A stretch of 64,000 nt of DNA, from positions 128,001 through 192,000 of the forward strand of contig CAVZYA010000002.1 in the NCBI GenBank assembly GCA_963779415.1, read 5' to 3'. The stretch comes from an uncultured Acidobacteriota bacterium. Its GTDB lineage: Bacteria; Acidobacteriota; Thermoanaerobaculia; UBA5066. A program made the translations under genes and the position numbers. Under the pieces are notes generated by a model, which worked only from the letters and a program-made list of their open reading frames with translations, searched no databases and was not told the DNA's origin. This document shows, one piece after another, positions 36,801-51,081 of the stretch. Numbering within the stretch: the stretch's first letter is position 1; every line of letters starts with the position of its first letter.

Positions 36801-37017
36801 CGTCGTGCCGCTCCTGACGGCGTCGGGGGCCGGGGCCGAGGCCCGCAAGGTGATCGGCATGGCCGTCTTCGCCGGCATGCTGATCGCGACCATCCTCGGC
36901 GTCTGCCTGATCCCGGTCCTGTTCGTCGTGGTCGAGAAGGTGACCGGCGGGGGCAAGCACGGGACGCCGCCGGCGGACGGGACGGCGCAGGAAAGCGGCC
37001 ACGGGGGAGGACATTGA
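33840..37017 (+). pseudogene. HAE1 RND permease 1, single frameshift near 35926
   Basis: FF..RPI.A, GIVVDDAIVVVE; C-terminal half in another frame with LAAQYESW, AKNAILIVEFA, R.RPILMT. Confidence 0.88.
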
Positions 37018-37018
37018 G

Positions 37019-38446
37019 ATGAAGAAGCTCCTTGTTTCCTGCCTCCTGGGCGCCTTCCTCGCCGGCTGCGCCGTCGGCCCGAACTACAAGCAGCCCGCTG
37101 TCGCGGCTCCCGAGCAGTACCGCGAGGTCCAGGGCCCGCCCGCGCCGGGCGCGTCGCTCGCCGACCTGCCGTGGTGGGAGACTTTCGGGGATCCGGCTCT
37201 GCAGAGCCTGATCGACGAAGCGCTCCGGAACAACTACGACGCCCGGATCGCCGCCTTCCGCGTCGACGAGGCGCGCGCCCGGGCGGGGATCGCCCGTTCG
37301 GAGTTCTTCCCGCAGATCGGATACGGAGGCGGCGTCTCGCGCGGCCTCACCTCGACCTACCTCTTCCCCGGCTCGACGACGGGAAACCAGGTCAGCGCCA
37401 ACGTGAACTTCGGTTGGGAGCTGGACCTCTGGGGACGAATCCGGCGCCTGAACGAATCCGCGAAAGCGCAGTACCTTGCGACGGAGGAAGCGCGGCGCGG
37501 CGTCGTCCTGTCGCTCGTCTCCGAAGTCGCCGCGACCTACTTCAATCTCCGCGCGCTCGACGAGCAGCTCGTCATCACGAAGGCGACCGTCGCCTCGTTC
37601 GAGGAGCAGTACAGGCTCTTCGATCTGAAGCTCCAGGGGGGGGCGGCCTCCTCCATCCAGACGTCGTATGCCGGCGCGGCTCTCGGTCAGGTGACCGCAC
37701 AGGTGCCGGAGATCGAACGGCAGATCGAGGCGACGGAAAACCGGCTCTGCCTGCTTCTCGGCCGGAACCCGGGGCCGATCCCGAGGGGCGAGGCGCTCGC
37801 CGCGCAGGCGTTGCCTCCGAAGATTCCGGCGGGCCTCCCGTCGGACCTCCTGAAGCGGCGGCCCGACATCCTGCAGGCCGAGCAGCAGCTCGTCGCTGCG
37901 AACGCCGACGTCGGCGTGTCCGTGGCGAATTTCTTCCCGTCCATCAGCCTGACGGGGCTCTTCGGCGGCGTCAGCCCGGACGTCTCGAGCCTCTTCTCGG
38001 CCGGAAAGACCTGGTCGATCGCCGCGGGACTCGTCGGACCGCTCTTCCAGGGGGGAAGGCTCCGGAGCGAGTACGAGGTGGCGGTGGCCCGATGGGAGCA
38101 GGCGAAGGCCCAGTACGAGCAGAGCGTCACGGGCGCTTTCGCCGAGACGACCACGGTCCTCTACGCGCGGGAGAAGATCGAGGCGTCCATCGTCCAGCTG
38201 AAACGGACGGTCGCCGAGTACCGCGAGATGGTCCGGCTCGCGAACGTCCGTTACGACGCGGGCGTGTCGGACTACTTCGAGGTTCTCTACTCCATGCAAC
38301 TTCTCTATCCGGCTGAGGTGACGCTCGTCAACGCGCAGCTCGACCTAGCCGTCGACTACGTGAACATCTACAAGGCGCTCGGCGGCGGATGGAATCAGCC
38401 GGAGACCCGGCCGGAGGCTGCACCGGCGCCGCCGCAGACAAACTGA
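37019..38446 (+). CDS. RND outer-membrane factor lipoprotein (NodT/OprM-like) 1
   Basis: LAGCAVGPNY, WW..F.DP.L, WELDLWGR, RRPDI..AE, Y.ALGGGW. Confidence 0.92.
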   Translation: MKKLLVSCLLGAFLAGCAVGPNYKQPAVAAPEQYREVQGPPAPGASLADLPWWETFGDPALQSLIDEALRNNYDARIAAFRVDEARARAGIARSEFFPQIGYGGGVSRGLTSTYLFPGSTTGNQVSANVNFGWELDLWGRIRRLNESAKAQYLATEEARRGVVLSLVSEVAATYFNLRALDEQLVITKATVASFEEQYRLFDLKLQGGAASSIQTSYAGAALGQVTAQVPEIERQIEATENRLCLLLGRNPGPIPRGEALAAQALPPKIPAGLPSDLLKRRPDILQAEQQLVAANADVGVSVANFFPSISLTGLFGGVSPDVSSLFSAGKTWSIAAGLVGPLFQGGRLRSEYEVAVARWEQAKAQYEQSVTGAFAETTTVLYAREKIEASIVQLKRTVAEYREMVRLANVRYDAGVSDYFEVLYSMQLLYPAEVTLVNAQLDLAVDYVNIYKALGGGWNQPETRPEAAPAPPQTN

Positions 38447-38477
38447 CGGGCGCGGGCCACCGAAAAAAGGAGAAGCA

Positions 38478-38933
38478 ATGAGGTTCCCGAATCGTCTCGC
38501 CTCCGCATTGGCTCTTCTCTCCGCTCTTCTTCTTCCCTCGTCCGCCCGGGCCCAATGGGTCTTCGTGGCACGGAAGGCAGTCGGAAAGATCCAGACCCTG
38601 ACCCAGAAGGAATCGACCGGCACGCCCGGCTACAGCGTGGCGACGGTCATCCTCGAGGGAAAGGCCGACAAGGTCTGGGCGACCGCGCTCAAGTCCGCCC
38701 AGTCGGCTCCGAATGCCCGGCTCACGCAGCAGGACCCGGCCGCATACACCCTCGAGTTCGTCGCCGCCGGCCAAGTCGCAGGGCTCCGGGTCTCGCAGGT
38801 GGACTCGAAGAAGGTCCAGATCCTCATCGCGTCGGCCGTTTCGCCCGGCAAGCCCGACGCGACACCGGCCGTCGTCGAGGCGACGCTCCGCATCTGCAAG
38901 GAGATGGGCGCCGTCTGCGAGGTCGTGAAGTAG
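38478..38933 (+). CDS. Secreted hypothetical protein
   Basis: AAGGAG RBS, signal peptide ending ARA-Q, terminal CxxxxxxC. Confidence 0.7.
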   Translation: MRFPNRLASALALLSALLLPSSARAQWVFVARKAVGKIQTLTQKESTGTPGYSVATVILEGKADKVWATALKSAQSAPNARLTQQDPAAYTLEFVAAGQVAGLRVSQVDSKKVQILIASAVSPGKPDATPAVVEATLRICKEMGAVCEVVK

Positions 38934-39114
38934 GGGAGATCGCTCGCCCCGCAGGCGGTCTTGTCCCGGGCAACCGGCTCCCGACTCGCCCGAAGTCCGG
39001 CGTGATGCTCTTGAATCAGACCTGACGGAAGAGGCTGCCTCCTCTCGTTCGTGGCGGTATCGTCGCGAGCACGCGGCTCTCCCCGGTCACCCTCGATTCG
39101 AAGGAGGGGTCTAC

Positions 39115-40301
39115 ATGCCATGTCTCCTTTTCCGCAGGGTAGCGGCGGCACCCTTCCTCCCGATCGCTCTGCTCTTCGCCCTCGCGCCAGGCGGCTGCGG
39201 GAAGGCGCCCACGGCCGCCGCACCCCCCCGCCGGTCGTCACGGTCGTGACGGTGGTTCCGAAGGACGAGCCCGTCGACGCCCAGTTCGTCGGCCAGACGC
39301 AGAGCTCCCACCTCGTCAACATCCAGGCCCGGGTGAGCGGGTTTCTCGACAAGCGCTTGTACACGGAAGGAGCCGTCGTGAAGGAGGGGCAGGTTCTCTT
39401 CCAGATGGACCCGAAGCCGTTCCAGGCCCAGCTCTCACAGGCCCGGGCCGCTCTCGCCCAGGCGGAGGCGGCCAAGGAGACGGCCCGCCTGAACCTGGAG
39501 CGGACCCGGCCGCTCACCGCGCTGAACGCCCTGTCGCAAAAGGACCTCGACGACGCGACCGGCCAGTTCCAGTCCTCGGCCGCCGCCGTCGAGCAGGCGA
39601 AAGCCGAGGTCGAGACGGCCGAGCTGAACCTCTCCTACACGACGATCACGACCCCCGTGACCGGCGTCAGCAGCTCGGCGAAGCAGACGGACGGCACGTT
39701 CATCAACGCCCAGAACAGCCTCCTGACGACGGTGGCGGCCCTCTCCCCGATGTGGGTGAACTTCAGCCTCTCCGAGAACCAGATGCAGGCCTACCGCGAC
39801 CAGGCGGCCCGGGGCCTCCTGGTCATGCCGAAAGACAGGCTCTACACACTCGAGATCGTCCTCGTGGATGGATCGATCTACCCGCACACGGCCCTGATCA
39901 CTTTCGCGGAGCCCTCCTTCAACGCCTCGACCGGGACGTTCCTCATCCGGGGCAGCGTGGCGAACCCCGATGGCGTCCTTCGCCCGAACCAGTACGTGAG
40001 GGTCCGCGTCAAGGGGGCGATCCGGCCCGGCGCGATCCTGATTCCCCAGCGCGCCGTCCAGCAGGGCTCGCAGGGGCATTTCGTCTGGGTCGTCGGAACC
40101 GACGCGAAGGCTGAGCGACGCCCCGTCACCGTCGGCGACTGGTACGGGGACGACTGGTTCATCTCCGAGGGACTCAGGGCAGGAGACCGGGTCGTCGTGG
40201 ACGGAGGCCTCACGCTCCGGCCGGGGACCGCCGTCACCGTGAAGGACGCACCGCCGCCTGGCGCAAACGCCACACCTCCCGCCGTCTCCACGGGACGGTA
40301 G
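39115..40301 (+). pseudogene. RND periplasmic adaptor 2, frameshift in C-run at ~39223-39229
   Basis: AAGGAGG RBS then ATG 39115 gives MPCLLFRR...PGGCGK lipoprotein signal. Body (IQARVSG, LFQMDP, IPQRAV) is in another frame after the C7 tract. Confidence 0.85.
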
Positions 40302-40313
40302 AGGGGCCGGGTC

Positions 40314-43300
40314 GTGTTCTCGAAGTTCTTCATCGAGCGGCCGATCTTCGCGACCGTCATTTCGCTCATCATCTGCATCGCCGGCCTCGTGGCGATGGGG
40401 CTCCTGCCGATCGAACAGTATCCGCCGATCACCCCCGTGCAGGTGACGGTGAGCGCGACCTATCCGGGCGCCGACTCGCAGACCGTGGCCGACTCGGTCG
40501 CCGCGCCGATCGAGGCGCAGATCAACGGCGTCGACAACATGATCTACATGTCGTCGTCGAGCTCCTCGAACGGGCAGCTCACGCTCACCGTCTACTTCAC
40601 GCTGGACACCGACCCGGACATCGCCCAGGTGCAGGTGCAGAACCGGGTCAGCCTCGCGCTCCCCCAGCTCCCGACGGCCGTCACGCAGCTCGGCGTCTCC
40701 GTCCAGAAGAAGGCCTCCTCGATCATGATGCTGATCGGCGTCTTCGCGAAGGACGGGGCTTACAGCAGCGACTACGTCGCCAACTACGCGAACGTCTACG
40801 TCCTCGACGCGCTCAAGCGGGTGCCGGGCGCCGGGCAGGCGGCGATCCTCGGGGTGCCCGACCAGGCGATGCGGATCTGGATGAACCCGGACCGGATGAC
40901 CTCGCTCGGGATCACGACGACCGACATCCAGCAGGCCGTCGCCAAGCAGAACGCCCTCTACGGCGCGGGCCAGATCGGACAGCAGCCGACCGCGGGCAAG
41001 GTGCAGATGACGTTCCCGGTCGTCACCCAGCGCCCGTTCACCCGGCCGGAGGAGTACGAGAACATCATCCTCCGCGCGAGCCCCGACCAGAGCGCCATCG
41101 TCTACCTCAAGGACGTGGCGCGAGCCGAGGTGGGCCTCCGGCAGTACCTGGTCGAGAGCAAGCTCAACGGCGTCCCGGCCACCCTGATCGCCGTCTACCA
41201 GCAGCCCGGCGCCAATGGCATCGCGGTCTCGAACGCGGTCCGAAAGACGCTCGGGGAGATGAAGGCCCGCTTCCCCGCGGGAATCGACTACAGGATCTCC
41301 CTCGACACGAACGACTTCGTGAAGATCTCCATCGACGAGGTGAAGAAGACCCTCCTCGAGGCGATCGTCCTCGTCGTCCTCGTCGTCTTCCTCTTCCTGC
41401 AGAGCTTCCGGACGACGGTCATCTGCGTCGTGGCGATCGTCGTCGCCCTCGTCAGCACCTTTGCCGGAATGCTGGCTCTCAGGTTCTCCATCAACCTCCT
41501 GACCCTCTTCGGCCTGGTGCTGGCCATCGGCATGGTCGTGGACGACGCGATCGTCGTCGTCGAGAACGTCGAACGCAACATGGCGAAGCTCCACCTTCCG
41601 CCCCGGGAGGCCACGATCAAGGCGATGGGAGAGATCGGCAGCTCTCTCGTCGCCGTCGTTCTCGTCATGGCCTCGGTCTTCATCCCGGCCGCCTTCCTTC
41701 CCGGCACGACCGGCCAGCTCTACAAGCAGTTCGCCATCACGATCGTCATCTCCGTGGCCGTCTCGGGGTTCGTGGCGCTGACCCTGACCCCCGCGATGTG
41801 CGGGGTCCTCCTCCGGCACGGCGAGCCGCCGAAGAAGGGGTTCTTCGCCTGGTTCAACCGGGGCGTGGACGGGATCACCCGCGCCTTCGGGGACGCCGTG
41901 ATGCTCGTCATCAAGCGGGTGGCCGTCGCGTTCGCGATTCTCGCCGTCCTCGTCGGGGCGATCGTCCACCTCTTCCGGGTCATCCCGACGAGCTTCGTGC
42001 CGACGGAGGACCAAGGCTACGTGATGGCGGCCGCGATCATGCCCGACGCCGCCAGCCTCGACCGGACCGGAGAGGTCGTGGACCGCGTCGACGAGATCTT
42101 CGCGAAGATCCCGGGCGTCGGCGACCGGTCGGCCGTCACGGGATTCAGCCTTCTGGACAACGGGTTCAAGACGAATGCCGGCACCCTTTTCGTGACGCTC
42201 AAGCCGTTCGACGAGCGCTACGCGTCGGCGAAGAAGGCGAAGGAGGAGAACGCCCGGGCCGTCCTGATGGCGGTGGCGCGGGAGTCCCGCGCCATTAGGG
42301 AGGGCGCGGTCATGCCGATCCCGCCCCCCGCGATCCCCGGTATCGGGACGACCGGAGGTTTCGAGTTCTGGATCCAGGACACGGCCGCGGGGGATCCGGC
42401 GAAGCTGGAGGAGGTCACCCGGCAGTTCCTCGCGAAGGCGGGTCAGCGCCCCGAGCTGACCACGCTGAACACGACTTTCCGCGCGACGACACAGCAGCTC
42501 TCGGCCGACGTCGACCGGGACAAGGCGAACCTCCTCGGCGTCCCGGTCCAGGACGTCTACAGCGCGATCCAGGCCCAGTTCGGGTCGCTGACCGTCAGCC
42601 AGTACAACGAGTACAGCCGGGTCTGGTGGGTCGTCCTCCAGTCCGAGCCGAAGTACCGGCAGCATCCCGGGGACCTGACCCGCCTCTACACGCGCTCCTC
42701 TTCCGGCGAGATGGTGCCGCTCTCGGCCCTCGTGACGACCCGCTGGGTGAGCGGCCCGGACCTGCTCCCCCATTTCAACGGATTTCCCGCCGCGAAGGTG
42801 AACGGAAACGCGGCCGCGACCTACAGCTCGGGGCAGGCGATCGCGGCGATGGAGGAGGTGGCGCGGGAAGTACTCCCGTCCGGGTTCACCTTCGCCTGGT
42901 CGGGCCTCGCGTTCGAGGAGAAGAAATCGGGAGGCTCCTCTTCTCTCGCTTTCGTCTTCGGCCTCCTGATCGTCTTCCTCGTCCTGGCCGCGCAGTACGA
43001 GTCGTGGACGTTACCCGGGTCCGTGATGATGGCCGTCCCCTTCGGCGTCCTCGGCGCCCTGACCGCCAACTGGCTCCGCGGGCTCTCGAACGACGTCTAC
43101 TTCCAGATCGGGCTTCTCGTCCTGATCGGCCTCGGGGCGAAGAACGCGATCCTGCGGGTCTCCTTCGCCCGGGAGCTTCGCCTCGAAGGGAAGTCGATCA
43201 TCGACGCGACGATCGAGGCCGGGGAGCAGAGGCTCCGGCCGATCATCATGACGTCGCTCGCTTTCGCCTTCGGCTGCCTGCCCCTCGCCCTCGCGATGGG

Positions 43301-43475
43301 CGCCGGCGCGAACGCACGGCACTCGATCGGGACCGGGATCATCGGCGGAATGATCGGAGAGACGACGCTCGCGATGCTCTACGTGCCGCTCCTCTTCTAT
43401 CTTTTCGAGCGGTTCGGCGAGCGCGGGAAGGAAAAAGGGGCCGCCGTGACCGCGGGCGGCGGGAAGGAGGGCTGA
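40314..43475 (+). CDS. HAE1 RND permease 2
   Basis: FFIERPIFA, GMVVDDAIVVVENVER, LAAQYESW, AKNAIL, RLRPIIMTS. Confidence 0.93.
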   Translation: MFSKFFIERPIFATVISLIICIAGLVAMGLLPIEQYPPITPVQVTVSATYPGADSQTVADSVAAPIEAQINGVDNMIYMSSSSSSNGQLTLTVYFTLDTDPDIAQVQVQNRVSLALPQLPTAVTQLGVSVQKKASSIMMLIGVFAKDGAYSSDYVANYANVYVLDALKRVPGAGQAAILGVPDQAMRIWMNPDRMTSLGITTTDIQQAVAKQNALYGAGQIGQQPTAGKVQMTFPVVTQRPFTRPEEYENIILRASPDQSAIVYLKDVARAEVGLRQYLVESKLNGVPATLIAVYQQPGANGIAVSNAVRKTLGEMKARFPAGIDYRISLDTNDFVKISIDEVKKTLLEAIVLVVLVVFLFLQSFRTTVICVVAIVVALVSTFAGMLALRFSINLLTLFGLVLAIGMVVDDAIVVVENVERNMAKLHLPPREATIKAMGEIGSSLVAVVLVMASVFIPAAFLPGTTGQLYKQFAITIVISVAVSGFVALTLTPAMCGVLLRHGEPPKKGFFAWFNRGVDGITRAFGDAVMLVIKRVAVAFAILAVLVGAIVHLFRVIPTSFVPTEDQGYVMAAAIMPDAASLDRTGEVVDRVDEIFAKIPGVGDRSAVTGFSLLDNGFKTNAGTLFVTLKPFDERYASAKKAKEENARAVLMAVARESRAIREGAVMPIPPPAIPGIGTTGGFEFWIQDTAAGDPAKLEEVTRQFLAKAGQRPELTTLNTTFRATTQQLSADVDRDKANLLGVPVQDVYSAIQAQFGSLTVSQYNEYSRVWWVVLQSEPKYRQHPGDLTRLYTRSSSGEMVPLSALVTTRWVSGPDLLPHFNGFPAAKVNGNAAATYSSGQAIAAMEEVAREVLPSGFTFAWSGLAFEEKKSGGSSSLAFVFGLLIVFLVLAAQYESWTLPGSVMMAVPFGVLGALTANWLRGLSNDVYFQIGLLVLIGLGAKNAILRVSFARELRLEGKSIIDATIEAGEQRLRPIIMTSLAFAFGCLPLALAMGAGANARHSIGTGIIGGMIGETTLAMLYVPLLFYLFERFGERGKEKGAAVTAGGGKEG

Positions 43476-43476
43476 G

Positions 43477-44880
43477 ATGCGCCGGCGCGCTCTTCTCGCC
43501 CCGGTTCTCCTCGTGGCCGGCTGCACGATGGGGCCGAACTACGTGCCGCCGCAGGTGGACGCTCCCCCCGCTTACCGGTACGAGGAGAAGGACGCTCAGG
43601 CGACGGCCAACACCGCCTTCTGGAAGCAGTTCGGAGACCCCGTCCTCGACGGGCTGATCGCCGAGGCGATCGCGAACAACCCGCAGGTCCTGATCGCCGC
43701 GGCCCGTGTCGAGCAGGCGGCGGCCGTTCTGACGCAGACGACGGCACCGCTCTATCCCCAGGTCGGGTACGGTGCCTCGGGAGGACGGGCCCTGGGGAGC
43801 GAATCGAACGCCACCCCCATTCCGCCGTCCGTGGCGAATCCCCAGACTTCCCTGCAGACGCTGGCCGGCGCAAGCTGGGAGATCGACCTCTGGGGGCGGA
43901 TCCGGAGACTCTCCGAAGCCGCTCGGGCGAACCTCCTCGGCGCCGAGGAGGCCCGCCGCGCCGTCGTCCTCTCCCTCGTCTCGTCCGTCGCCACGACGTA
44001 CATCCAGCTCCTCGGCTTCGACGAGCAGCTCGCCGTCTCGAAGCGCTCGCTCGGGACCTACGCCGAGTCGGTGAGGCTCTTCGAGCTGAAGTTCGCTCAC
44101 GGCCAGGTCTCGCAGATGAACGTCGAGCAGGCGCGAACGCAGTACGAGACGGCGGCGGCAGTCATCCCGCAGATCGCCGTCCAGATCGTCCGGACGGAGA
44201 ACGCCCTCTCGACGCTCCTCGGGCGCAACCCCGGCCCCGTCGCCCGGGGGAAGACGATCGACACGATCGCCCTCCCCACGGTCCCCGCCGGGCTTCCGTC
44301 CGAAATCCTGGCCAACCGGCCCGACATCCGGCAGGCCGAGCAGGATCTCGTCGCCGCCAACGCGCAGATCGGGGCGGCGAAGGCCCTCTATTTCCCAAGC
44401 ATCTCCCTCACGGGAGCGTTCGGATGGGCCAGCGCCGACCTCTCGAACCTGTTCAAGGGGCCCGCGCTGACCTGGAGCTGGACCGCCTCCCTCACGGGGC
44501 CCCTCTTCGCGGCCGGTTCGATCAGGGCCCAGGTGAGACAGGCGGAGGCGGGGACGAAGGCGGCCCTCCTCGGTTACCAGGCGTCGATCCAGAGTGCCTT
44601 CGCCGACGTCGAGAACGCCCTCGCCGGCCACCGGTTCCTCGTCGAGCAGGTAGACGCTCAGAGGCGCCTCGTGAAAGCCGGCAGCGAGTACGAGCGCCTC
44701 GCCCGGCTGCAGTTCGACGGCGGCTACGCGCCCTACTCCACCGTGCTGCAGGCCCAGCAGCAGCTCTTCCCCTCGGAGCTGAACTACGCCCAGTATCGCG
44801 CCCAGCTCTTCGGCTCGCTGGTCGACATCTACAAGGCGATGGGGGGAGGCTGGGTGACCGCGGCAGAGTCGGCGCGCTAG
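43477..44880 (+). CDS. RND outer-membrane factor lipoprotein 2
   Basis: VAGCTMGPNY, WEIDLWGR, NRPDIRQAE, YKAMGGGW. Confidence 0.92.
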   Translation: MRRRALLAPVLLVAGCTMGPNYVPPQVDAPPAYRYEEKDAQATANTAFWKQFGDPVLDGLIAEAIANNPQVLIAAARVEQAAAVLTQTTAPLYPQVGYGASGGRALGSESNATPIPPSVANPQTSLQTLAGASWEIDLWGRIRRLSEAARANLLGAEEARRAVVLSLVSSVATTYIQLLGFDEQLAVSKRSLGTYAESVRLFELKFAHGQVSQMNVEQARTQYETAAAVIPQIAVQIVRTENALSTLLGRNPGPVARGKTIDTIALPTVPAGLPSEILANRPDIRQAEQDLVAANAQIGAAKALYFPSISLTGAFGWASADLSNLFKGPALTWSWTASLTGPLFAAGSIRAQVRQAEAGTKAALLGYQASIQSAFADVENALAGHRFLVEQVDAQRRLVKAGSEYERLARLQFDGGYAPYSTVLQAQQQLFPSELNYAQYRAQLFGSLVDIYKAMGGGWVTAAESAR

Positions 44881-44889
44881 GATGCCGGG

Positions 44890-45480
44890 ATGGAACTTCT
44901 CGACGCGCGACGGAGCGTTCTCGTCGTCATCGATTACCAGGGAAAGCTGATGGACCTGGTGGAGAACAAGGCGCGAGTCGTCGCCGTGGCGAAACGCCTT
45001 CTCACTCTCGGGGAGATGTTCGGGATTCCGGTCCTTCTCGCCGAGCAGTATCCGAAAGGGATCGGGCCGACGCATCCCGGGATCCGCGCCGCCTTCGACG
45101 CCGTCACGACGCCGAAAAGATACCTCGAGAAGACGACTTTCAGCTGCTGCGGCCAGCCGGACTTCGCGGCCCTCATCGACTCGATCCGCCCCCGGCAGGG
45201 GAGCGCGCCCCGGCAGGTCGTCGTGGGAGGCGTCGAGGCGCACATCTGCGTCATGCAGACCGTGATCGAGCTTCTCCGCGCGGGGGACCAGGTCCACGTC
45301 TGCTGGGACGCCGTCAGCAGCCGCGCTCCCGGCTACGCGGAACGGGCTCTCGACCGGATGGCGCAGGCGGGCGCCGTCATCACGAACCACGAGTCGGTCG
45401 GGTTCGAATGGGCCCGGGAAAAGAACCACCCCAGGTTCCGCGAGATGAGCGATCTCCTGAAGGGTAATCTGCCGGACTGA
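44890..45480 (+). CDS. Isochorismatase-like (cysteine hydrolase) family protein
   Basis: LVVIDYQ, EQYPKGIG.T, K..FSC, G.EAHICV.QT. Confidence 0.88.
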   Translation: MELLDARRSVLVVIDYQGKLMDLVENKARVVAVAKRLLTLGEMFGIPVLLAEQYPKGIGPTHPGIRAAFDAVTTPKRYLEKTTFSCCGQPDFAALIDSIRPRQGSAPRQVVVGGVEAHICVMQTVIELLRAGDQVHVCWDAVSSRAPGYAERALDRMAQAGAVITNHESVGFEWAREKNHPRFREMSDLLKGNLPD

Positions 45481-45512
45481 AGACAGAAGCTGCCAGAACG
45501 ACGCTCCCGGCA

Positions 45513-45527
45513 TGGCATGCCGCGTGC
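45513..45527 (+). promoter_or_regulatory. Putative sigma54 (-24/-12) promoter
   Basis: TGGCATGCCGCGTGC: GG at 45514-45515 and GC at 45526-45527 separated by exactly 10 nt. Confidence 0.5.
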
Positions 45528-45539
45528 GAAGGAGAGGGT

Positions 45540-45590
45540 GCGCACATTCCAACCTCTCCTCCAAGCCGCCTTCGGGCGGCTCCTTTTTTT
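45540..45590 (+). ncRNA. Candidate ~50-nt small RNA with CU-rich anti-SD seed
   Basis: Predicted +1 ~45539-45540, then ACATTCCAACCTCTCCTCC, then intrinsic terminator; no ORF fits. Confidence 0.4.
45564..45590 (+). terminator. Rho-independent terminator
   Basis: AGCCGCC-TTCG-GGCGGCT hairpin followed by CC and T7. Confidence 0.8.
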
Positions 45591-45622
45591 CCTTCCTCCT
45601 GAATCGTTTACGATGGACCCCC

Positions 45623-46945
45623 GTGGCAGAGCCGCCCGTCTACTTCGCCTTCACCGGGGGGCGCCAGATCGGACCTCTCCAGTTCGCCGAGCTGGCGGAC
45701 CTGGCCGCACGGAGTGTTCTCCATCCCGACGATCTCGCGTGGAAGAGCGGCACGCCGGAATGGGTCCCCGCCTCGCAGCTTCTCGCGTTCCCGAAGCGTC
45801 CGTCATCACCCGAAGTGCCGGCATTCCCGTCACCGGGAGCCGAGGGCGTTCCCGATCTTGCGGCGCCTGCCACTTCGGCCGCGCCGGCCAGATCGGCTTC
45901 CGCTCCCCTGCGTCCGGCCGGTCCGGCGTCGCCGCCCGGAAAGTGGCCGCGCGTCACGATGACGAAGGGCTCCGACGACCCCGGCCTCGCGTTGGAGGAG
46001 ACGGGCGTCGGAAAGGGCTCGAAGGAGACCGCGCTCAATGAGGCCGAAGAGGCGCCCGCCCGGGCCCGTTCCCGGCTCTCGGGGCTTCTCCCCATCCGCC
46101 GGCTCAACGACGCGGCGGTTCTCGGCTCTCCGGTCACATGGTCGCTCGTCTTCTTCGGCGTCGGTCCGCTCCTCGTCTCGGCGGTCGCCGAGGACCCCTA
46201 CCTCCGGATCCGGCTCTTCGACTTCGGCTGCGGTGCGCTCTGGATCGCCTTCTTCTACTGGGCCTACCGGACCGAGGCCGCGACGACCCGGACCATCCTC
46301 TCGGTCTTCTTCGGGTCGGTCCTCTTCGCCCTCCTCTACTTCGGCCTTCTCGAGGGATGGCCCCCCATTTCGACGCTCCGGGGCGCGGCCGCAGGGGCGG
46401 GCTTCGGTACGCGCTTCATCGCCGCGCTCCTGGGAACGGCCCTCGTGCAGGAACTCGGGAAGGTGGCGCTCCTCGTCCTCATCGCGCGTGCGCTCGGCGA
46501 GCTGAACGAATTCGGAGACGGTCTCTTCTTCGGCCTCATCGCCGGAGCCGGGTTCGGCCTTTGCGCGTCGATCGTCCGTTCCTGGACGTTCGGCATCCCC
46601 GACGAAAAGGTCCTCCGCGCCTCCGACGCGCCCGTCGCGGCGCTCTATGCCTCTTTCCTCGGAGCCGCGGTCCAGGCTCTCGCTCTCCCCTTCCTTCATG
46701 CCGTCTGGAGCGCCATCGCCGGAGGCTTCGTGGTCCGCGGGCTTCCCTCGAAGGGTCGGCCGGCGGCACCCGGAACGATCCTTCTCGGCCTCGTCCTCGC
46801 CGTCGTCTTCCACGCGCTCTATGCGGCGCTCGCCCCGCCGGCGACGGCGTTCTTCTCGGTCCTCGTCGCCGCGGTGGCGCTCGCCCTCTTCCTCGCCCTC
46901 CGCCGCGACTCGGAGGAGCAGCCGATCCTCACGGCGCTGCGCTGA
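45623..46945 (+). CDS. GYF_2 (DUF4339) domain + PrsW-like intramembrane protease-fold protein
   Basis: N-term G.QIGP....L..L......DDLAWKSG..EW.PA (GYF_2), Pro/Ala linker, multi-TM domain with QELGK, G.GFG, LHAVWS, FHALY. GTG start inferred. Confidence 0.72.
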   Translation: MAEPPVYFAFTGGRQIGPLQFAELADLAARSVLHPDDLAWKSGTPEWVPASQLLAFPKRPSSPEVPAFPSPGAEGVPDLAAPATSAAPARSASAPLRPAGPASPPGKWPRVTMTKGSDDPGLALEETGVGKGSKETALNEAEEAPARARSRLSGLLPIRRLNDAAVLGSPVTWSLVFFGVGPLLVSAVAEDPYLRIRLFDFGCGALWIAFFYWAYRTEAATTRTILSVFFGSVLFALLYFGLLEGWPPISTLRGAAAGAGFGTRFIAALLGTALVQELGKVALLVLIARALGELNEFGDGLFFGLIAGAGFGLCASIVRSWTFGIPDEKVLRASDAPVAALYASFLGAAVQALALPFLHAVWSAIAGGFVVRGLPSKGRPAAPGTILLGLVLAVVFHALYAALAPPATAFFSVLVAAVALALFLALRRDSEEQPILTALR

Positions 46946-48245
46946 TCCGGGCCGCCGGCTTTCCGAGGAGAAAGCCCTGTCCGTACCGGATCCCGAGCTC
47001 GACGAGGCTTCGGAGCTCCTCCTCCCCCTCGATCCCCTCCGCCACGAGCGTCGAGCCGATCTGTCGGCCGAGGGAAAGGAGGCTCGCCAGGACCTCTCGC
47101 TTGATCGCATCCTGATGGAGATTCCGGACGATCGACGTGGCGATCTTCATGAACTCGGGACGAAGCTGCAGGATCGTCTCGAGGCCCGAGTAGCCCGATC
47201 CGGTGTCGTCGATGGCGAAGCGGAAGCCCGCGGCGCGCAGCCGCTCGAGAACCTCGCGGAAGGCCGGGTAGTTCCAGACGATCTCCTTCTCGGAAACCTC
47301 GACGACGATCGAGGGGTGTGCCCGCTTCATCGCGGCCAGGTTCCTTTCATCGAGAAAGACGGGGTGCGTCAGGAGACGCGCCGAGGCGTTGACGAAGAGA
47401 ACGCTGGAGCGCACGGCTCGTGGAAGGGAGGAGAAGATCGTCTCGAGGCAGAGGTTCTCGAGCTCGAGGAGCATGTCCCCTTCGCGCGCGACCGTGAAGA
47501 GCGCATCGGGCATCTCGAGCTCGCTGCCCGCCGGGCCGCGGATGAGCGCTTCGTAGCCGAGGACCCTCCGGTCCGAGAGCCCGCGAAGCGGCTGCCAGAC
47601 GGCGTGCAGGCCGCGCCCCGAGAGGACCTCCTTCAGCGCCTCGACGCGCCCCTTTCGCGCGCCGCTCTGCTGCGCTTCGGCCACCCGGACCGCTTCGAGG
47701 ATTCCGCGCGCGAGGTTGCGCGAGGGACGAACGCGCGGGTCGTCGGTCACGGAGGCGACGCCGACGTAGACGTTCATCAGGTCGACGGCGATCCGCCCGA
47801 AGGCCTGGCGGAGACGGCGAAGGACCCCCTGTCGGATGCGCCGCGCCTCCGGCTCGAGAAGGGCGGATCGGCGCTCGGCCGGGCGCGACGAGAGATCGAA
47901 GAGGAGACAGAAGCCGTCGCAGCCGTTGAAGGAGAAGGAGCGATGGAGCCCCTTCAGCTCCGAGGTTTCGAGGTCCTCCCTGAGGCTCGAAGCGGTCAGG
48001 CGGAGGACGCGGTCGTAGAGCTCCCAGCCATAGAGGCTCTCCACGCCGGCGAAGCGCCCGAGCTGGAGGTAGACGATTCCCATCCCGGCGACCCGCTCGA
48101 AGCCGGCGCCCGGGTCGGGCTGAAGCGGCAGGCCGGTCACGACGTCGGTGGCGAGCCGCTCCATGCCGAGGCGCGCCACGTCGGCGACGGCCTCGGGAGG
48201 GGCGGGCGGCACGAGAGTCAGGGGACGATGTCCACGCGATTTCAT
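46929..48245 (-). CDS. EAL-domain c-di-GMP phosphodiesterase with degenerate GGDEF-like N-terminus
   Basis: QP, YEALIRG, FVN, EVSE, IDDTGSGYSGL, VAEGIE, QGFLLGKP. Confidence 0.85.
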   Translation of the reverse strand: MKSRGHRPLTLVPPAPPEAVADVARLGMERLATDVVTGLPLQPDPGAGFERVAGMGIVYLQLGRFAGVESLYGWELYDRVLRLTASSLREDLETSELKGLHRSFSFNGCDGFCLLFDLSSRPAERRSALLEPEARRIRQGVLRRLRQAFGRIAVDLMNVYVGVASVTDDPRVRPSRNLARGILEAVRVAEAQQSGARKGRVEALKEVLSGRGLHAVWQPLRGLSDRRVLGYEALIRGPAGSELEMPDALFTVAREGDMLLELENLCLETIFSSLPRAVRSSVLFVNASARLLTHPVFLDERNLAAMKRAHPSIVVEVSEKEIVWNYPAFREVLERLRAAGFRFAIDDTGSGYSGLETILQLRPEFMKIATSIVRNLHQDAIKREVLASLLSLGRQIGSTLVAEGIEGEEELRSLVELGIRYGQGFLLGKPAARISAAP

Positions 48246-48634
48246 CGCGACTCCTTGCGGCGTCCCCCGGAGGTCAGGGCGTGCACCTTCCGGCGAAGCT
48301 CCTCGACGCGGAACGGCTTTCTCAGGTGGTCGGTGCCGCCCACCTGAAGGGCCGTGATCTGGTCGCGCAGCTCGCCCCGCCCGGTCAGGAAGAGGACGGG
48401 GACGTTCTGCGTCGCCGTCTGCCGGCGGACGATGTCACAGAGCTCCCAGCCGTTCAGACCGGGCATGTTCACGTCGAGAACGAGGAGATCCGGGGGGTCC
48501 GCGAGGACGGCCAGAAGTCCGGCGCGGCTGTCGCTCGCCCCGGCGACCCGGTAGCCCTCGCCCGAGAGGGCCTCCGCGACGGCCGTGACGAGAGAGGGGT
48601 CGTCGTCGACGATGAAGACCGACGGGTTCGTCAT
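48242..48634 (-). CDS. Single-domain response regulator (receiver)
   Basis: IVDDD, LDVNMPG, LFLTG, KPF; ATGA-coupled to upstream kinase and downstream EAL gene. Confidence 0.9.
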   Translation of the reverse strand: MTNPSVFIVDDDPSLVTAVAEALSGEGYRVAGASDSRAGLLAVLADPPDLLVLDVNMPGLNGWELCDIVRRQTATQNVPVLFLTGRGELRDQITALQVGGTDHLRKPFRVEELRRKVHALTSGGRRKESR

Positions 48635-49873
48635 GCGACCTCCGGTCTGTAGAGCGGGAACATGATCGTCACTTCCAGGCCGCGCCCCGGATCGGACAGG
48701 AGCGAGATCTTCCCGCCCTGCGCCTCGAGGAGCTCGCGAACGAGCGCGAGACCCAGCCCGCGCCCTTCGGCTCCCGAGGCCCGGGCCGCCTCGCCGCGAT
48801 AGGCGTACTCGAAGGCGCGCCTCTGCTCTTCGCGCGTCATGCCGATTCCCGTGTCGCTGATCACCACGAACGCGTGCTGGGCGGCGACGCTCGCGCGGAT
48901 CTTGACCTGTCCGCCGGACGGCGTGTACTTCACCGCGTTGTCGAGGACGTTCCGAAGCGCCCTCTGGATGGCGACGGGATCGGCCGCCACGACGATCTCC
49001 TCCTCGTCCGCGACGAACTCGATCAGGAGCCTCTCTCCGTGCGCGGCGCCGTAAGACGCCGCGAGCGAGTCGAGGAGCTTCAGAAGGTCGGTTCGGGGCC
49101 GCGGGCGGGGAGGCGGGGCGACCGGAGCGGCGCGGAGCGGGGCGGACGACGCCGGCGAGCGACTCCATCAGGCCGATCTCGTTTCCGAGGTTCGCCAGGT
49201 GCTCGGGGCGCGGCGGCTCCCCGCGACGCGCGCTCTCCGCGATGAGGTCCGCGTAAACCCGTACGACCGAAAGCGGCGACTTCAGATCGTGGAGAAGATC
49301 CTGCCTGGCGTCGCGAGCCGGGGACGTTTGCGAAGGGACGGCCCGGCTCCCGGTCGTCGCCGGGGCGTCGTTCCGGCTCTCCACGGCGGGCGCCGCCGCG
49401 AGAAGCCGGCCCCCGGCTTCGAGAACCAGGAGGACGGCCAGTGGCCAGACGACGCGAAGGACGGGCCCGACCGGAGGCGGAACGCCGCCGACCACGGCCG
49501 GCACCGCGAGCGCCGCCGCGCCGGCGGTCGCCGCCACGGCCAGAAAGCGTCCGGCGGGTGCTCCGTGGCCGACGCGCGCGAGAACGACCTCCAGGAGGAG
49601 AAGCGGATAGAGCTCGCTCGTGACTCCCCCCGTCAACGACAGCGCGAAGAGGACGAGCGTGAGAGAGGCGCCGAGGTCGACGGGGAGGGCAAAGACCCCG
49701 AAGGTGCGGCCGACGGACGGAACGAGGAGAAAGGCGCGCAGCGCCACGGCCCCGCCCGCGACCGCCGCAAGGCGAGGGACTTCCGGCGCCGCGGCGGCAC
49801 CGGAAGCCAGGACGAGGAGAATGGCGATGAGGAGCAGACCGGTCGAAAGGAGACCGCGCGCGAGGCTGCTCAC
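48631..49873 (-). pseudogene. Membrane sensor histidine kinase, frameshift near 49135
   Basis: TM helices, H-box HDLKSPL; HATPase boxes NVLDNAVKYT, DTGIGM, GRGLGL in a second frame. Confidence 0.82.
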
Positions 49874-49903
49874 GCGGACGCGAATCTTCCCGGGCCTCGC
49901 CCC

Positions 49904-51004
49904 TCAGTGGACATACGCGCAGCCGACCCGGAGCCGGCCGTCCGCGAGCGGAATGGCGCTCACGGTGCGCATGGCTACCCGGTGGGTCTCCGAGCTGTGC
50001 TTCTGGCGGATTTCACCCTGGAGAAACGAGGGGGGCTTTCCGTCCGAAGAGAGAAAGGCGAGGCCGCCATAGGAGATGTCACGGACTTCTGCGGTCTCTC
50101 CGCGCCGGGACCGCGAGCCGGGCAGTTTGACGGAGAGCCCCGGAACGTCGAAGCGCGGAAACCGCCGCGTGCGGCCGAAATCGGCGGAGGCCTGCTGCTT
50201 CGAACGATAGAGCCGGATGTCGGACATCTTCAGGAGGAAGTCGAGGAGACGTCCGTCCGTGGGAAACGACGCCACGCCGTACGAGAGACCCACCCGGAGC
50301 CCGACCTGGCGCGGAAGGCGAATCGTCCCGACCCGCCGCCTTATCCGCTCGGCCACCGTCAGGCTGTGAAGGATGTCGCTGTTCGGAAGGACGGCCACGA
50401 ACTCGTCGCCGCCGTAGCGGCACCCCGCGTCCACCGCGCGAAGAGAGGCCCGTATGGCCGCGGCCGTCCGCGCGAGGATGCTGTCGCCGACCGGATGGCC
50501 GAGCCGGTCGTTGATCCCCTTGAACCCCGTCAGATCCATCATCAGAACCGAGACGACGCCTCCGGTCCGCTCGGCACGTGCCACCTCGCGGTCGAGGTGG
50601 TCGAGAAGGAAGCGCCTGTTGTAGAGCCCCGTCAGCGGGTCGGTGATGGCGTTGAATCTCAGCGCTGAGACATCCTGATCGGAGAGGATCCGCGGCTCGG
50701 CGAGAAATCCGCGCCGGCTGTGAAACTCGTGGAGAAGCGCGGTCTGGAGCGACACGGGCGAGCCGAGGCTCTCGTGAAGCGCGGAGAGGAGCTTCAGAAC
50801 GCGCTTGAACTCGCGCTCGGCTTCGGTCGGCTCGAGCGTGACGCCGGTCCACTCGATCAGGAGAAGGCGAAGGAGTTCTCCCGCGCCGATCCCGTCCGCC
50901 GCGGCCGAAAGCTCCTGCTCGAAGGTTTCGCGTGCGAAGTTACGGGCTCGACCCAGCTTCGCGAGCCGGGCGACACGGGAAGCGACGTCCTGCTCTTTCA
51001 GCAC
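49904..51004 (-). CDS. Diguanylate cyclase with C-terminal PilZ domain
   Basis: TDPLTGLYNRR, FK.IND.LGH..GD, RAVD I-site, GGDEF; PilZ RRFPR and DISYGG. Start uncertain (GTG 51004, or upstream to 51073). Confidence 0.87.
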   Translation of the reverse strand: MLKEQDVASRVARLAKLGRARNFARETFEQELSAAADGIGAGELLRLLLIEWTGVTLEPTEAEREFKRVLKLLSALHESLGSPVSLQTALLHEFHSRRGFLAEPRILSDQDVSALRFNAITDPLTGLYNRRFLLDHLDREVARAERTGGVVSVLMMDLTGFKGINDRLGHPVGDSILARTAAAIRASLRAVDAGCRYGGDEFVAVLPNSDILHSLTVAERIRRRVGTIRLPRQVGLRVGLSYGVASFPTDGRLLDFLLKMSDIRLYRSKQQASADFGRTRRFPRFDVPGLSVKLPGSRSRRGETAEVRDISYGGLAFLSSDGKPPSFLQGEIRQKHSSETHRVAMRTVSAIPLADGRLRVGCAYVH

Positions 51005-51065
51005 TTTCCGGACGGTTTGCTGCCCGCCGCAGATCGGCTTTTGAATTCCATCGAAGCGGGAAAAT

Positions 51066-51081
51066 TGTAACACGCGTCACG
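51066..51081. promoter_or_regulatory. CRP/FNR-family-like operator between divergent DGC and ferredoxin genes
   Basis: TGTAA-N6-TCACG (consensus TGTGA-N6-TCACA), overlapping a minus-strand TGTTACAAT extended -10. Confidence 0.35.

Follow-up and report, generated by a model that had tools for sequence, protein, structure and literature searches.

The intergenic region analyzed here lies in a 64-kb stretch of DNA (the window) from an uncultured Acidobacteriota bacterium with a 4.36-Mb genome assembly (GCA_963779415.1, contig CAVZYA010000002.1, positions 128,001 to 192,000). Between the genes for an isochorismatase-family hydrolase and for a membrane protein with GYF_2 and PrsW-protease domains (GYF-PrsW), it holds a putative sigma-54 promoter, a short tract ending in a CU-rich sequence and an intrinsic terminator (Table 1), a combination that had been put forward, from the sequence of the window alone, as a gene for a small RNA (sRNA) of ~50 nucleotides (nt) carrying an anti-Shine-Dalgarno (anti-SD) seed. 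The GG-N10-GC promoter, the CU tract and the UUCG-capped terminator with its T7 run named in this original prediction were all recovered at the positions listed in Table 1. The comparative analysis presented below indicates that the unit is very probably a real and previously undescribed gene for a regulatory RNA of ~50 nt, near-universal in one uncultured family of the Acidobacteriota.

Table 1. Features of the predicted sRNA unit and its flanking genes, in window coordinates.
Feature	Position	Strand	Basis and remarks
Isochorismatase-family hydrolase, upstream neighbor	44890-45480	+	Pfam PF00857, E 5e-24
Conserved dyad box TGCCAGAACGACGC, family consensus gyGCC-N5-GGCrC	45491-45504	+	Center ~42 nt upstream of predicted start
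Sigma-54-type promoter TGGCATGCCGCGTGC, TGGCAT-N5-GTGC	45513-45527	+	Sequence and conservation; -24 GG at 45514-15, -12 GC at 45526-27
Purine-rich variable spacer, -12 to +1	45528-45538	+	AGGAGAGG at 45530-45537, complementary to seed
Predicted small RNA, ~52 nt	45539-45590	+	Start from promoter geometry (+/-2 nt), end at T7 run
Predicted unpaired 5' tail GCGCACAUUCCAACCUCUCCUCCA	45540-45563	+	Unpaired in minimum-energy and centroid folds; conserved
Candidate CU-rich anti-Shine-Dalgarno seed CCUCUCCUCC	45553-45562	+	CCUCC core in common with 16S rRNA end
Intrinsic terminator: 7-bp stem, UUCG loop, CC, U7	45564-45590	+	Terminator scan, covariation
GYF_2 + PrsW-protease membrane protein, downstream neighbor	45623-46945	+	PF14237, PF13367; GTG start at 45623; not part of the RNA

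Promoter, transcript and terminator

In the promoter sequence the GG and GC dinucleotides are separated by exactly 10 nt, as prescribed for the sigma-54 motif, and no sigma-70-like promoter was detected in a promoter and terminator scan of positions 43000-48000. Transcription from sigma-54 promoters is expected to start ~12 nt downstream of the -12 C. Beyond the spacer, GCGCACATTCCAACCTCTCCTCCAA starts at 45540, ACATTCCAACCTCTCCTCC lies within 45544-45562 and CCTCTCCTCC spans 45553-45562. The terminator scan identified a hairpin (AGCCGCC-TTCG-GGCGGCT, 45564-45581) with 7 pairs, 6 of them G-C, followed by CC and by the T7 run at 45584-45590. The predicted fold of the 52-nt RNA consists of a free tail of 25 nt and this hairpin (-14.4 kcal/mol, 83% of the ensemble), in keeping with the exposed, unstructured tract that had been proposed. 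The RNA was also said to leave no room for an open reading frame (ORF), and indeed no ATG, GTG or TTG occurs in positions 45539-45590; a start-like triplet is present in 25 of the 44 homologs aligned below, with the terminator loop as its sole site, the position having been viewed in 7 copies, 3 of which had none. With a promoter of its own, a rho-independent terminator ending in a U tail and no coding capacity, the unit has the makings of an sRNA gene. The 3' end of the 16S rRNA in the same genome is GGAUCACCUCCUUUCU, which has the CCUCC core in common with the seed, and the RNA contains no GGA motifs for CsrA-type proteins.

The genome encodes the corresponding machinery. The sigma factor gene rpoN, on which the sigma-54 assignment depends, is present (PF04552, 218.7 bits; contig C1, 443751-444224). 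The sigma-54 activator domain (PF00158, Sigma54_activat) was matched 28 times, with 23 of the scores at or above 122 bits, and two Hfq-domain matches (59.2 and 30.1 bits) were obtained for hfq. No activator gene is adjacent to the unit.

Conservation and genomic context in the family

In order to describe the phylogenetic range of the unit, homologs were sought at several taxonomic levels. A DNA search of 40 relatives returned matches in all 7 same-genus genomes and in 3 further genera, making 11 of 41 genomes with that of the window included. A covariance model (R1), built from 12 copies and spanning the dyad box, promoter, RNA and terminator, matched at full length in 60 of the 63 genomes of the family, representing 9 of its 10 genera, usually in single copy and twice in 3 genomes; the 3 family genomes without a match are 99%, 81% and 72% complete. 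When R1 was applied across the order, 59 of 62 family genomes were matched, together with 6 of 81 genomes of the sister family f2, all weakly (30.6-35.1 bits), and none of 7 genomes of family f3. Within a class-wide sample, a match was present in 15 of the 16 family genomes, versus a single weak one (33 bits) in 134 others. An exact pattern comprising the promoter, a gap, CGCAC, a second gap and CCTCTCCTC was finally scanned against ~185,000 species genomes, one per species, and recovered 28 stretches. In 27 of these the title designates a metagenome-assembled genome (MAG) of Acidobacteria, Acidobacteriota, Holophagales or Thermoanaerobaculia, and the remaining title, Acidithiobacillales, was taken to be a labelling matter. 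Of the conditions under which the original prediction would have failed, two, a motif that is not conserved and a genome lacking rpoN, were examined and did not apply; promoter, CU tract and terminator are conserved family-wide.

The alignment of homologs took in 45 of the 63 family matches (30 loci, the second copy in genome G009, and 14 more) and left out 18, of which 17 belong to genus g4 and one to genus g10. From the 52 aligned rows, 8 were dropped (five f2 sequences, two partial, terminator-only rows from locus L050, and the second copy in genome G062), leaving 44 homologs. The pattern TGGCA[CT]-N6-TGC is present in 44/44, with TGGCAC in 38 and TGGCAT in 6, and its -12 element reads GTGC in 21 copies, CTGC in 17, ATGC in 5 and TTGC in 1. 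Between the -12 TGC and GCGCAC there follows a gap of variable sequence that measures 12 nt in 13 copies, 13 nt in 24, 14 nt in 5 and 15 nt in 2. Conservation resumes at the predicted +1 (GCGCACAyyCCArCCUCUCCUCC) in all 44 copies; GCGCAC itself is found in 41 and ACGCAC in the other 3. Expressed as the frequency of the top base, conservation is 0.77 in the dyad box, 0.55 from the box to the -24 element, 0.98 in that element, 0.62 between the elements, 1.00 in the -12 element, 0.59 in the spacer, 0.87 in the RNA tail, 0.95 in the terminator stems and 0.64 in the loop. The predicted unpaired tail, with its single-stranded seed, accounts for 23 of these columns. Such a profile is expected of a promoter followed by a transcript that would start ~12 nt past the -12 C; neither coding sequence nor a terminator by itself would be expected to give it.

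The terminator helix and the seed show the same persistence. Computed over the 52 rows, 99.5% of 364 cells in the helix are paired, changes on both sides occur at 3 of 7 pairs (26 cells), and the covariation score was reached by none of 500 shuffles. T runs of 5 to 9 nt are found in all 44 homologs. Besides CCUCUCCUCC, the seed occurs as CCUCCUGCC, as CCAACCUCCUGCC in most of genus g4 and as CUCUCCUCCUCC in a subclade, and all variants have in common a CCUCC/CUCC core.

The dyad box upstream of the promoter has 6 invariant positions in 44/44 homologs and is held at a fixed distance, its top-base frequency contrasting with that of the next 8 columns. Elsewhere in the genome of the window, the best match to the box profile (contig C2, 1166958, minus strand) is followed, at the same spacing of 8 nt, by a TGGCAC element within TGGCACGCACCTTGT, which has TTGT instead of TTGC at -12 (locus L084:5596-5970, minus strand; C2:1166595-1166969 in genome coordinates). 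The ORF downstream of this second box is conserved, comprises 75 codons and has no Pfam match, and it is possible that it represents a co-regulated gene. The arrangement of box, 8 nt and TGGCACGCACCTTGT, shared by three genomes of the genus, argues for the box as a real cis element tied to sigma-54 promoters, and the box may be regarded as a candidate binding site for an activator or another regulator. A profile scan of the 260 nt upstream revealed no repeated box. A search for the right half-box combined with the sigma-54 pattern, a pattern that misses the box of the window itself (which reads GACGC), returned 0-4 matches per genome versus 0-8 for the control, and no clear box regulon emerged beyond the one genus-level site.

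The genes flanking the unit were surveyed at the 44 loci by tblastn, with a Pfam check of selected genes and with gene calls in the relatives based on rough ORFs and third-position GC content. In 33 of the 44 loci the upstream gene, in the same orientation, is that for RNase E/G, and in 31 of them it is within 72 nt. The isochorismatase gene takes this position in 8/44 loci, all in the genus of the window (g1). GYF-PrsW follows downstream on the same strand in 12/44, and two loci have neither neighbor. In one genome (G014), the unit as a whole lies in reverse orientation between RNase E/G and GYF-PrsW, so that its promoter points away from GYF-PrsW and its terminator abuts the stop codon of the RNase E/G gene. 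Since promoter, tail and terminator are kept while neighbors and orientation change, the comparison marks the unit as a putative gene of its own. The proposed independent promoter-to-terminator unit of ~50 nt, with a tail exposed in the predicted fold, is hence both conserved and neighbor-independent.

At the same time, the unit follows its upstream gene closely. The upstream stop codon is found 8-72 nt before the box in 31/44 loci and 12 nt before the start of the model in the window, and because of this proximity the terminator of the RNA probably also ends the upstream gene. To this extent the fallback offered by the original prediction, according to which the element would simply be the terminator of the preceding gene island, can be upheld, but it leaves the conserved promoter, the conserved tail and the changing neighbors without explanation. 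Type I 3'-untranslated region (3'-UTR) sRNAs, such as MicL and DapZ, are transcribed from a separate promoter located where a coding gene ends, and share its terminator. In most of the family, where the RNase E/G gene immediately precedes the unit, the organization of the unit would resemble that of a type I 3'-UTR sRNA.

The wider surroundings of the locus differ from those first assumed. The genes upstream had been read as an amino-acid deamination island, but they consist of two successive RND efflux sets (AcrB-OEP, then HlyD-AcrB-OEP; 33840-44880) and the isochorismatase-family hydrolase. The accompanying link to nitrogen control is unsupported, as none of the results bears on nitrogen. 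Beyond GYF-PrsW, the minus strand at 46929-51073 carries a cyclic di-GMP cluster with an EAL protein, a response-regulator protein and a GGDEF-PilZ protein. GYF-PrsW, which begins with GTG or ATG, has no Shine-Dalgarno (SD) sequence and is preceded at 6-8 nt by a conserved TACGAT (45609-45614, replaced by TAGGAT in two relatives), and this suggests that GYF-PrsW may have its own promoter and a leaderless mRNA. The frame at 45512-46945, which runs through the RNA and could be taken for an N-terminal extension of GYF-PrsW, was rejected: its same-genus homologs differ by indels of 1-2 nt, and conservation in this segment tracks the promoter and the terminator, not codons.

Seed pairing and related sequences

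A read-through transcript had been proposed to mask the seed by pairing it with the purine-rich spacer. In the genome of the window, AGGAGAGG does pair with the seed (-15.7 kcal/mol), but pairing at -10 kcal/mol or below is found in just 20 of the 44 homologs, and in one same-genus relative (locus L019) it amounts to -0.8 kcal/mol. Compared with shuffled spacers, z-scores below -2 were obtained for 3/44 homologs, one of these at -3.3 kcal/mol, and a conserved seed-masking hairpin was hence discarded. The pairing is mostly explained by the purine-rich composition of the spacer.

The 14-nt complement of the seed, GGAGGAGAGGYTGG, was searched for with at most one mismatch and proved rarer than a reversed control, the perfect matches being mostly the RNA gene itself. 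The deficit ranges from 1.3-fold (genome G006) to ~4-fold (15 versus 45, in the genome of the window) in genus g1 and from ~2.5-fold to 9-fold in genus g2. This scarcity could mean that internal SD-like sequences are avoided, or that the RNA is.

Further sequences related to the unit were encountered in the same genome. A second candidate sigma-54-driven sRNA of ~97 nt (L065:1759-1881, equivalent to C2:434258-434380, plus strand) is flanked by V/A-type ATPase genes on one side and a bshC-like gene on the other. It is composed of CTGGCACGACGATTGC, ~12 nt, a short hairpin, CCUCCUCUCCUCCUACC and a strong terminator, and the 10-nt CCUCUCCUCC recurs in it unchanged; promoter, tract and terminator are kept in 5 of 8 genomes of the genus (that of the window and 4 of its 7 relatives). 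A third site combining CCUCUCCUCC with a terminator (C1:1176346) was dismissed as merely the terminator after a gene, its tract not being conserved. A 23-nt near-copy of the tail (TGCACATTCCAAGCCTCTCCCCC; C2:217468-217490, plus strand), with neither sigma-54 motif nor terminator, lies ~110 nt upstream of a Ser/Thr-kinase-like gene, beside a stretch of lower GC content, and could be a decayed paralog, or a sponge if the opposite strand is transcribed.

Two variants were observed in other genomes. The second R1 match of genome G062 (L062:2501-2597) keeps the box, CCGGCAC-N6-TGC, GCGCAC and the terminator, with the CU tract gone (GCGCACGUUCUAA); an integrase-core (rve) gene lies upstream, and this copy may be a mobilized or retargeted paralog. 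In the sister family f2, five loci (L045-L049; ~2501-2604, and 216-320 in L049) contain a look-alike RNA, CAGACACACGCGAUCUCCUCCUCC, with a terminator and without the sigma-54 motif. This RNA is preceded by a conserved CCTCAACG-N16-CCGTA, resembling a promoter for an extracytoplasmic function sigma factor, and is not located beside RNase E/G. It may be the same RNA placed under a different sigma factor, or the two designs may have converged.

Relation to known RNAs and interpretation

The unit matches no Rfam family, as would be expected for the undescribed RNA originally postulated. No model reached its gathering score in positions 44500-46500, and none had an E-value of 0.1 or lower in the homologous loci searched (six or seven). 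The sole model overlapping the predicted RNA is RF00519 (mmgR/suhB; 45533-45596, E 0.97), which the unit resembles as a short RNA with a CU-rich tract and a terminator; membership was rejected on its score of 18.4 bits, versus a gathering score of 41, and on the lack of a match in the homologous loci. Full-text literature searches turned up no description of an sRNA from Acidobacteriota.

Both sigma-54-dependent sRNAs and anti-SD sRNAs are established kinds. The Qrr1-5 RNAs are transcribed under LuxO, and Pxr of Myxococcus is a further sigma-54-dependent sRNA. Qrr1-5 of Vibrio, GlmY of enterobacteria and NcS25 of Burkholderia cenocepacia are reported to be sigma-54-dependent base-pairing sRNAs (PMC10162802, PMC3045617, PMC10117139). 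As in Qrr, GlmY, NcS25 and Pxr, a short non-coding RNA would here be transcribed from a -24/-12 promoter and end at an intrinsic terminator of its own, and the second unit with the same CCUCUCCUCC in this genus recalls the sibling RNAs with a common seed that make up the Qrr group. The predicted RNA is, however, much smaller than Qrr or GlmY, with ~50 nt and a single hairpin, and differs from all four in having no adjacent activator gene and a conserved upstream element at ~-42 in place of a distant enhancer. A further parallel is provided by CJnc230 (FlmE) of Campylobacter jejuni, which is described as an RpoN-linked RNA located directly downstream of a protein gene, repressing mRNAs through a single-stranded putative anti-SD motif (CCUU) and having an RpoD promoter as well (PMC11187230). 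The unit has in common with CJnc230 the putative RpoN link, the position behind a protein gene and the predicted single-stranded anti-SD motif, and is distinguished from it by a putative sigma-54 promoter of its own after the stop codon and by the CCUCUCCUCC tract.

Anti-SD motifs of a similar kind are found in other RNAs. NfeR1 (alpha-r14) is characterized by three hairpin loops with CCUCCUCCC, silences mRNAs by occluding their ribosome-binding sites (RBSs), and is activated by LsrB and repressed by NtrC from a promoter with no sigma-54 signature (PMC10746234), and CCUCCUCCC anti-SD motifs are also present in the cuckoo RNAs, including CcsR (PMC4615179). The unit and the alpha-r14 and cuckoo RNAs all have a highly conserved CU-rich anti-SD motif in an unpaired region; unlike them, it has one such motif, CCUCUCCUCC, in a 5' tail, one hairpin, a sigma-54 promoter and a host from a different phylum. 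It was not assigned to either group, since CCUCCUCCC is not repeated in several hairpin loops and no Rfam match was obtained.

The course of events set out below, from transcription itself and its sigma-54 dependence to the exact 5' end, the use of Hfq and repression by pairing, is what we infer from the sequences. Sigma-54 RNA polymerase would bind TGGCAT-N5-GTGC (45513-45527), and one of ~23 enhancer-binding proteins would open the promoter on a signal, perhaps through the dyad box near -42. Transcription would start at ~45539-45540 and stop at the UUCG-capped terminator (45590), giving a product that consists of a 25-nt unstructured tail (GCGCACAUUCCAACCUCUCCUCCA), a single hairpin and a U tail, the latter two forming a typical Hfq-binding module. 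The CU-rich tail would most likely pair with GGAGG-type RBSs of several mRNAs, and this pairing would block 30S binding and lower translation and mRNA stability. That a sigma-54-transcribed RNA is really made at this locus appears likely, and, if it is, anti-SD base pairing is its probable mode of action. For the whole reading, a sigma-54- and activator-dependent, trans-acting sRNA that pairs with GGAGG-type RBSs, we estimate a probability of roughly 0.55, which makes it the best explanation of the data.

Several observations weigh against this reading. As regards the promoter, the sigma-54 motif by itself is not above chance in the window: TGGCAYN6TGC has one match in the 64 kb, where shuffled sequences have a mean of 0.29 and 24 of 100 shuffles contain at least one. 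Genome-wide there are 29 such sites on both strands. In favor of the reading, many of the other 28 precede an RBS and a start codon, several with GTGC at -12. The motif owes its significance to the 44/44 aligned homologs that keep it in register. The -12 element of these homologs is mostly GTGC or CTGC and not the textbook TTGC, although GTGC-type elements are also present in other candidate sigma-54 promoters of the genome. Enhancer sites for sigma-54 are usually found 80-150 nt upstream; no enhancer site was detected at that distance, and the sole conserved upstream element lies unusually close (~-42), in a role that is a guess. Moreover, a search of sequencing runs returned no RNA run with the locus, just DNA contigs at small shares.

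The search for targets is the second source of doubt. A genome-wide duplex scan yielded 1976 sites at -19 kcal/mol or below, forming a continuum, and the 2634 candidate starts bearing an SD sequence (mean -16.5, standard deviation 4.3, best -34.1 kcal/mol) included no clear outlier. The genes rpoN, the two hfq and the 23 activator genes have contiguous matches of at most 7 nt. Conservation of targets was assessed by collecting perfect 10-mer matches that precede a start codon in five genomes from different genera, which left 91 regions after removal of the RNA loci and of overlapping duplicates; with the genome of the window added, 8 plausible starts were retained under strict filters and 22 under relaxed ones. 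Among these 22, from six genomes, no homologous protein pair was found, and perfect matches before start codons were not commoner than those of a reversed control. Complementarity cannot confirm the mechanism, seeds of the SD type being so generic.

The alternative that best withstands these data accepts a real sigma-54 RNA and assigns another function to its tail, which would bind or titrate a protein (S1, Hfq or a ribonuclease) or, through GCGCACA, pair with one partner outside SD sequences. It accounts for the conservation of the whole tail, GCGCAC included (41/44), and not of the CU tract alone, and for the failure to find a conserved mRNA target; a further point in its favor is the RNase E/G gene adjoining in 33/44 loci. 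Even so, the seed variants CCUCUCCUCC, CCUCCUGCC and CUCUCCUCCUCC reduce to the CCUCC/CUCC anti-SD core, GGA motifs are absent, a single short tail makes a poor sponge, and gene adjacency is weak evidence; we consider this alternative unlikely. Improbable by a wider margin is a mere shared terminator or 3' UTR, in which the motif would be non-functional or the site of another protein and any short RNA would result from mRNA processing. The 8-72 nt that separate the upstream stop codon from the box in 31/44 loci leave little space for another terminator, and the sigma-54 motif, taken singly, lacks significance. A terminator, however, requires neither an invariant TGGCAC-N6-TGC at a fixed distance nor an invariant unpaired tract of 23 nt, the upstream gene varies among genera, and in G014, where the unit faces the RNase E/G gene, the upstream mRNA cannot supply the tail. 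A sigma-54 leader with a transcription attenuator controlling GYF-PrsW in cis, as might be suggested by a GYF-PrsW start 21-32 nt past the 3' end of the model in 7 of 8 same-genus loci (the exception, L017, has 340 nt to the start of the tblastn match) and by its adjacency in 12/44 loci overall, is the least probable explanation, given that most genera have another downstream gene (the loci tested carry one for an MFS transporter or for a 4Fe-4S protein), that GYF-PrsW is not downstream in 31/44 loci and is divergent in G014, that no anti-terminator structure is conserved, with spacer-seed pairing in just 20/44, and that TACGAT suggests a separate promoter and a leaderless mRNA for GYF-PrsW.

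Returning to the preferred reading of an sRNA that pairs with RBSs, a bolder version of it joins its elements with those of the context. The RNA would then be a sigma-54-gated, minimal 50-nt mimic of the 16S rRNA 3' end and a global competitor of ribosomes for a whole class of strong, GGAGG-rich leaders, with its activator at ~-42 and a tie to RNA decay through an ancestral RNase E/G 3' UTR. To our knowledge, an activator located immediately beside the polymerase at ~-42 is a geometry that has not been described for sigma-54 promoters. This combination is a long shot; if true, induction of the RNA would reset translation globally and not just for a few genes.

Acidobacteriota are among the most abundant soil bacteria, and the family harboring this unit is known only from MAGs. 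The kind of regulator is a familiar one, which makes the finding useful rather than startling to specialists. The second such unit in the same genome may point to a recurrent design, in which a sigma-54 promoter, an anti-SD tail and a terminator are combined. For this family, a near-universal, single-copy sigma-54 RNA would provide an entry to post-transcriptional control, to the sigma-54 regulon with its ~23 activators, and to RNA-based annotation.

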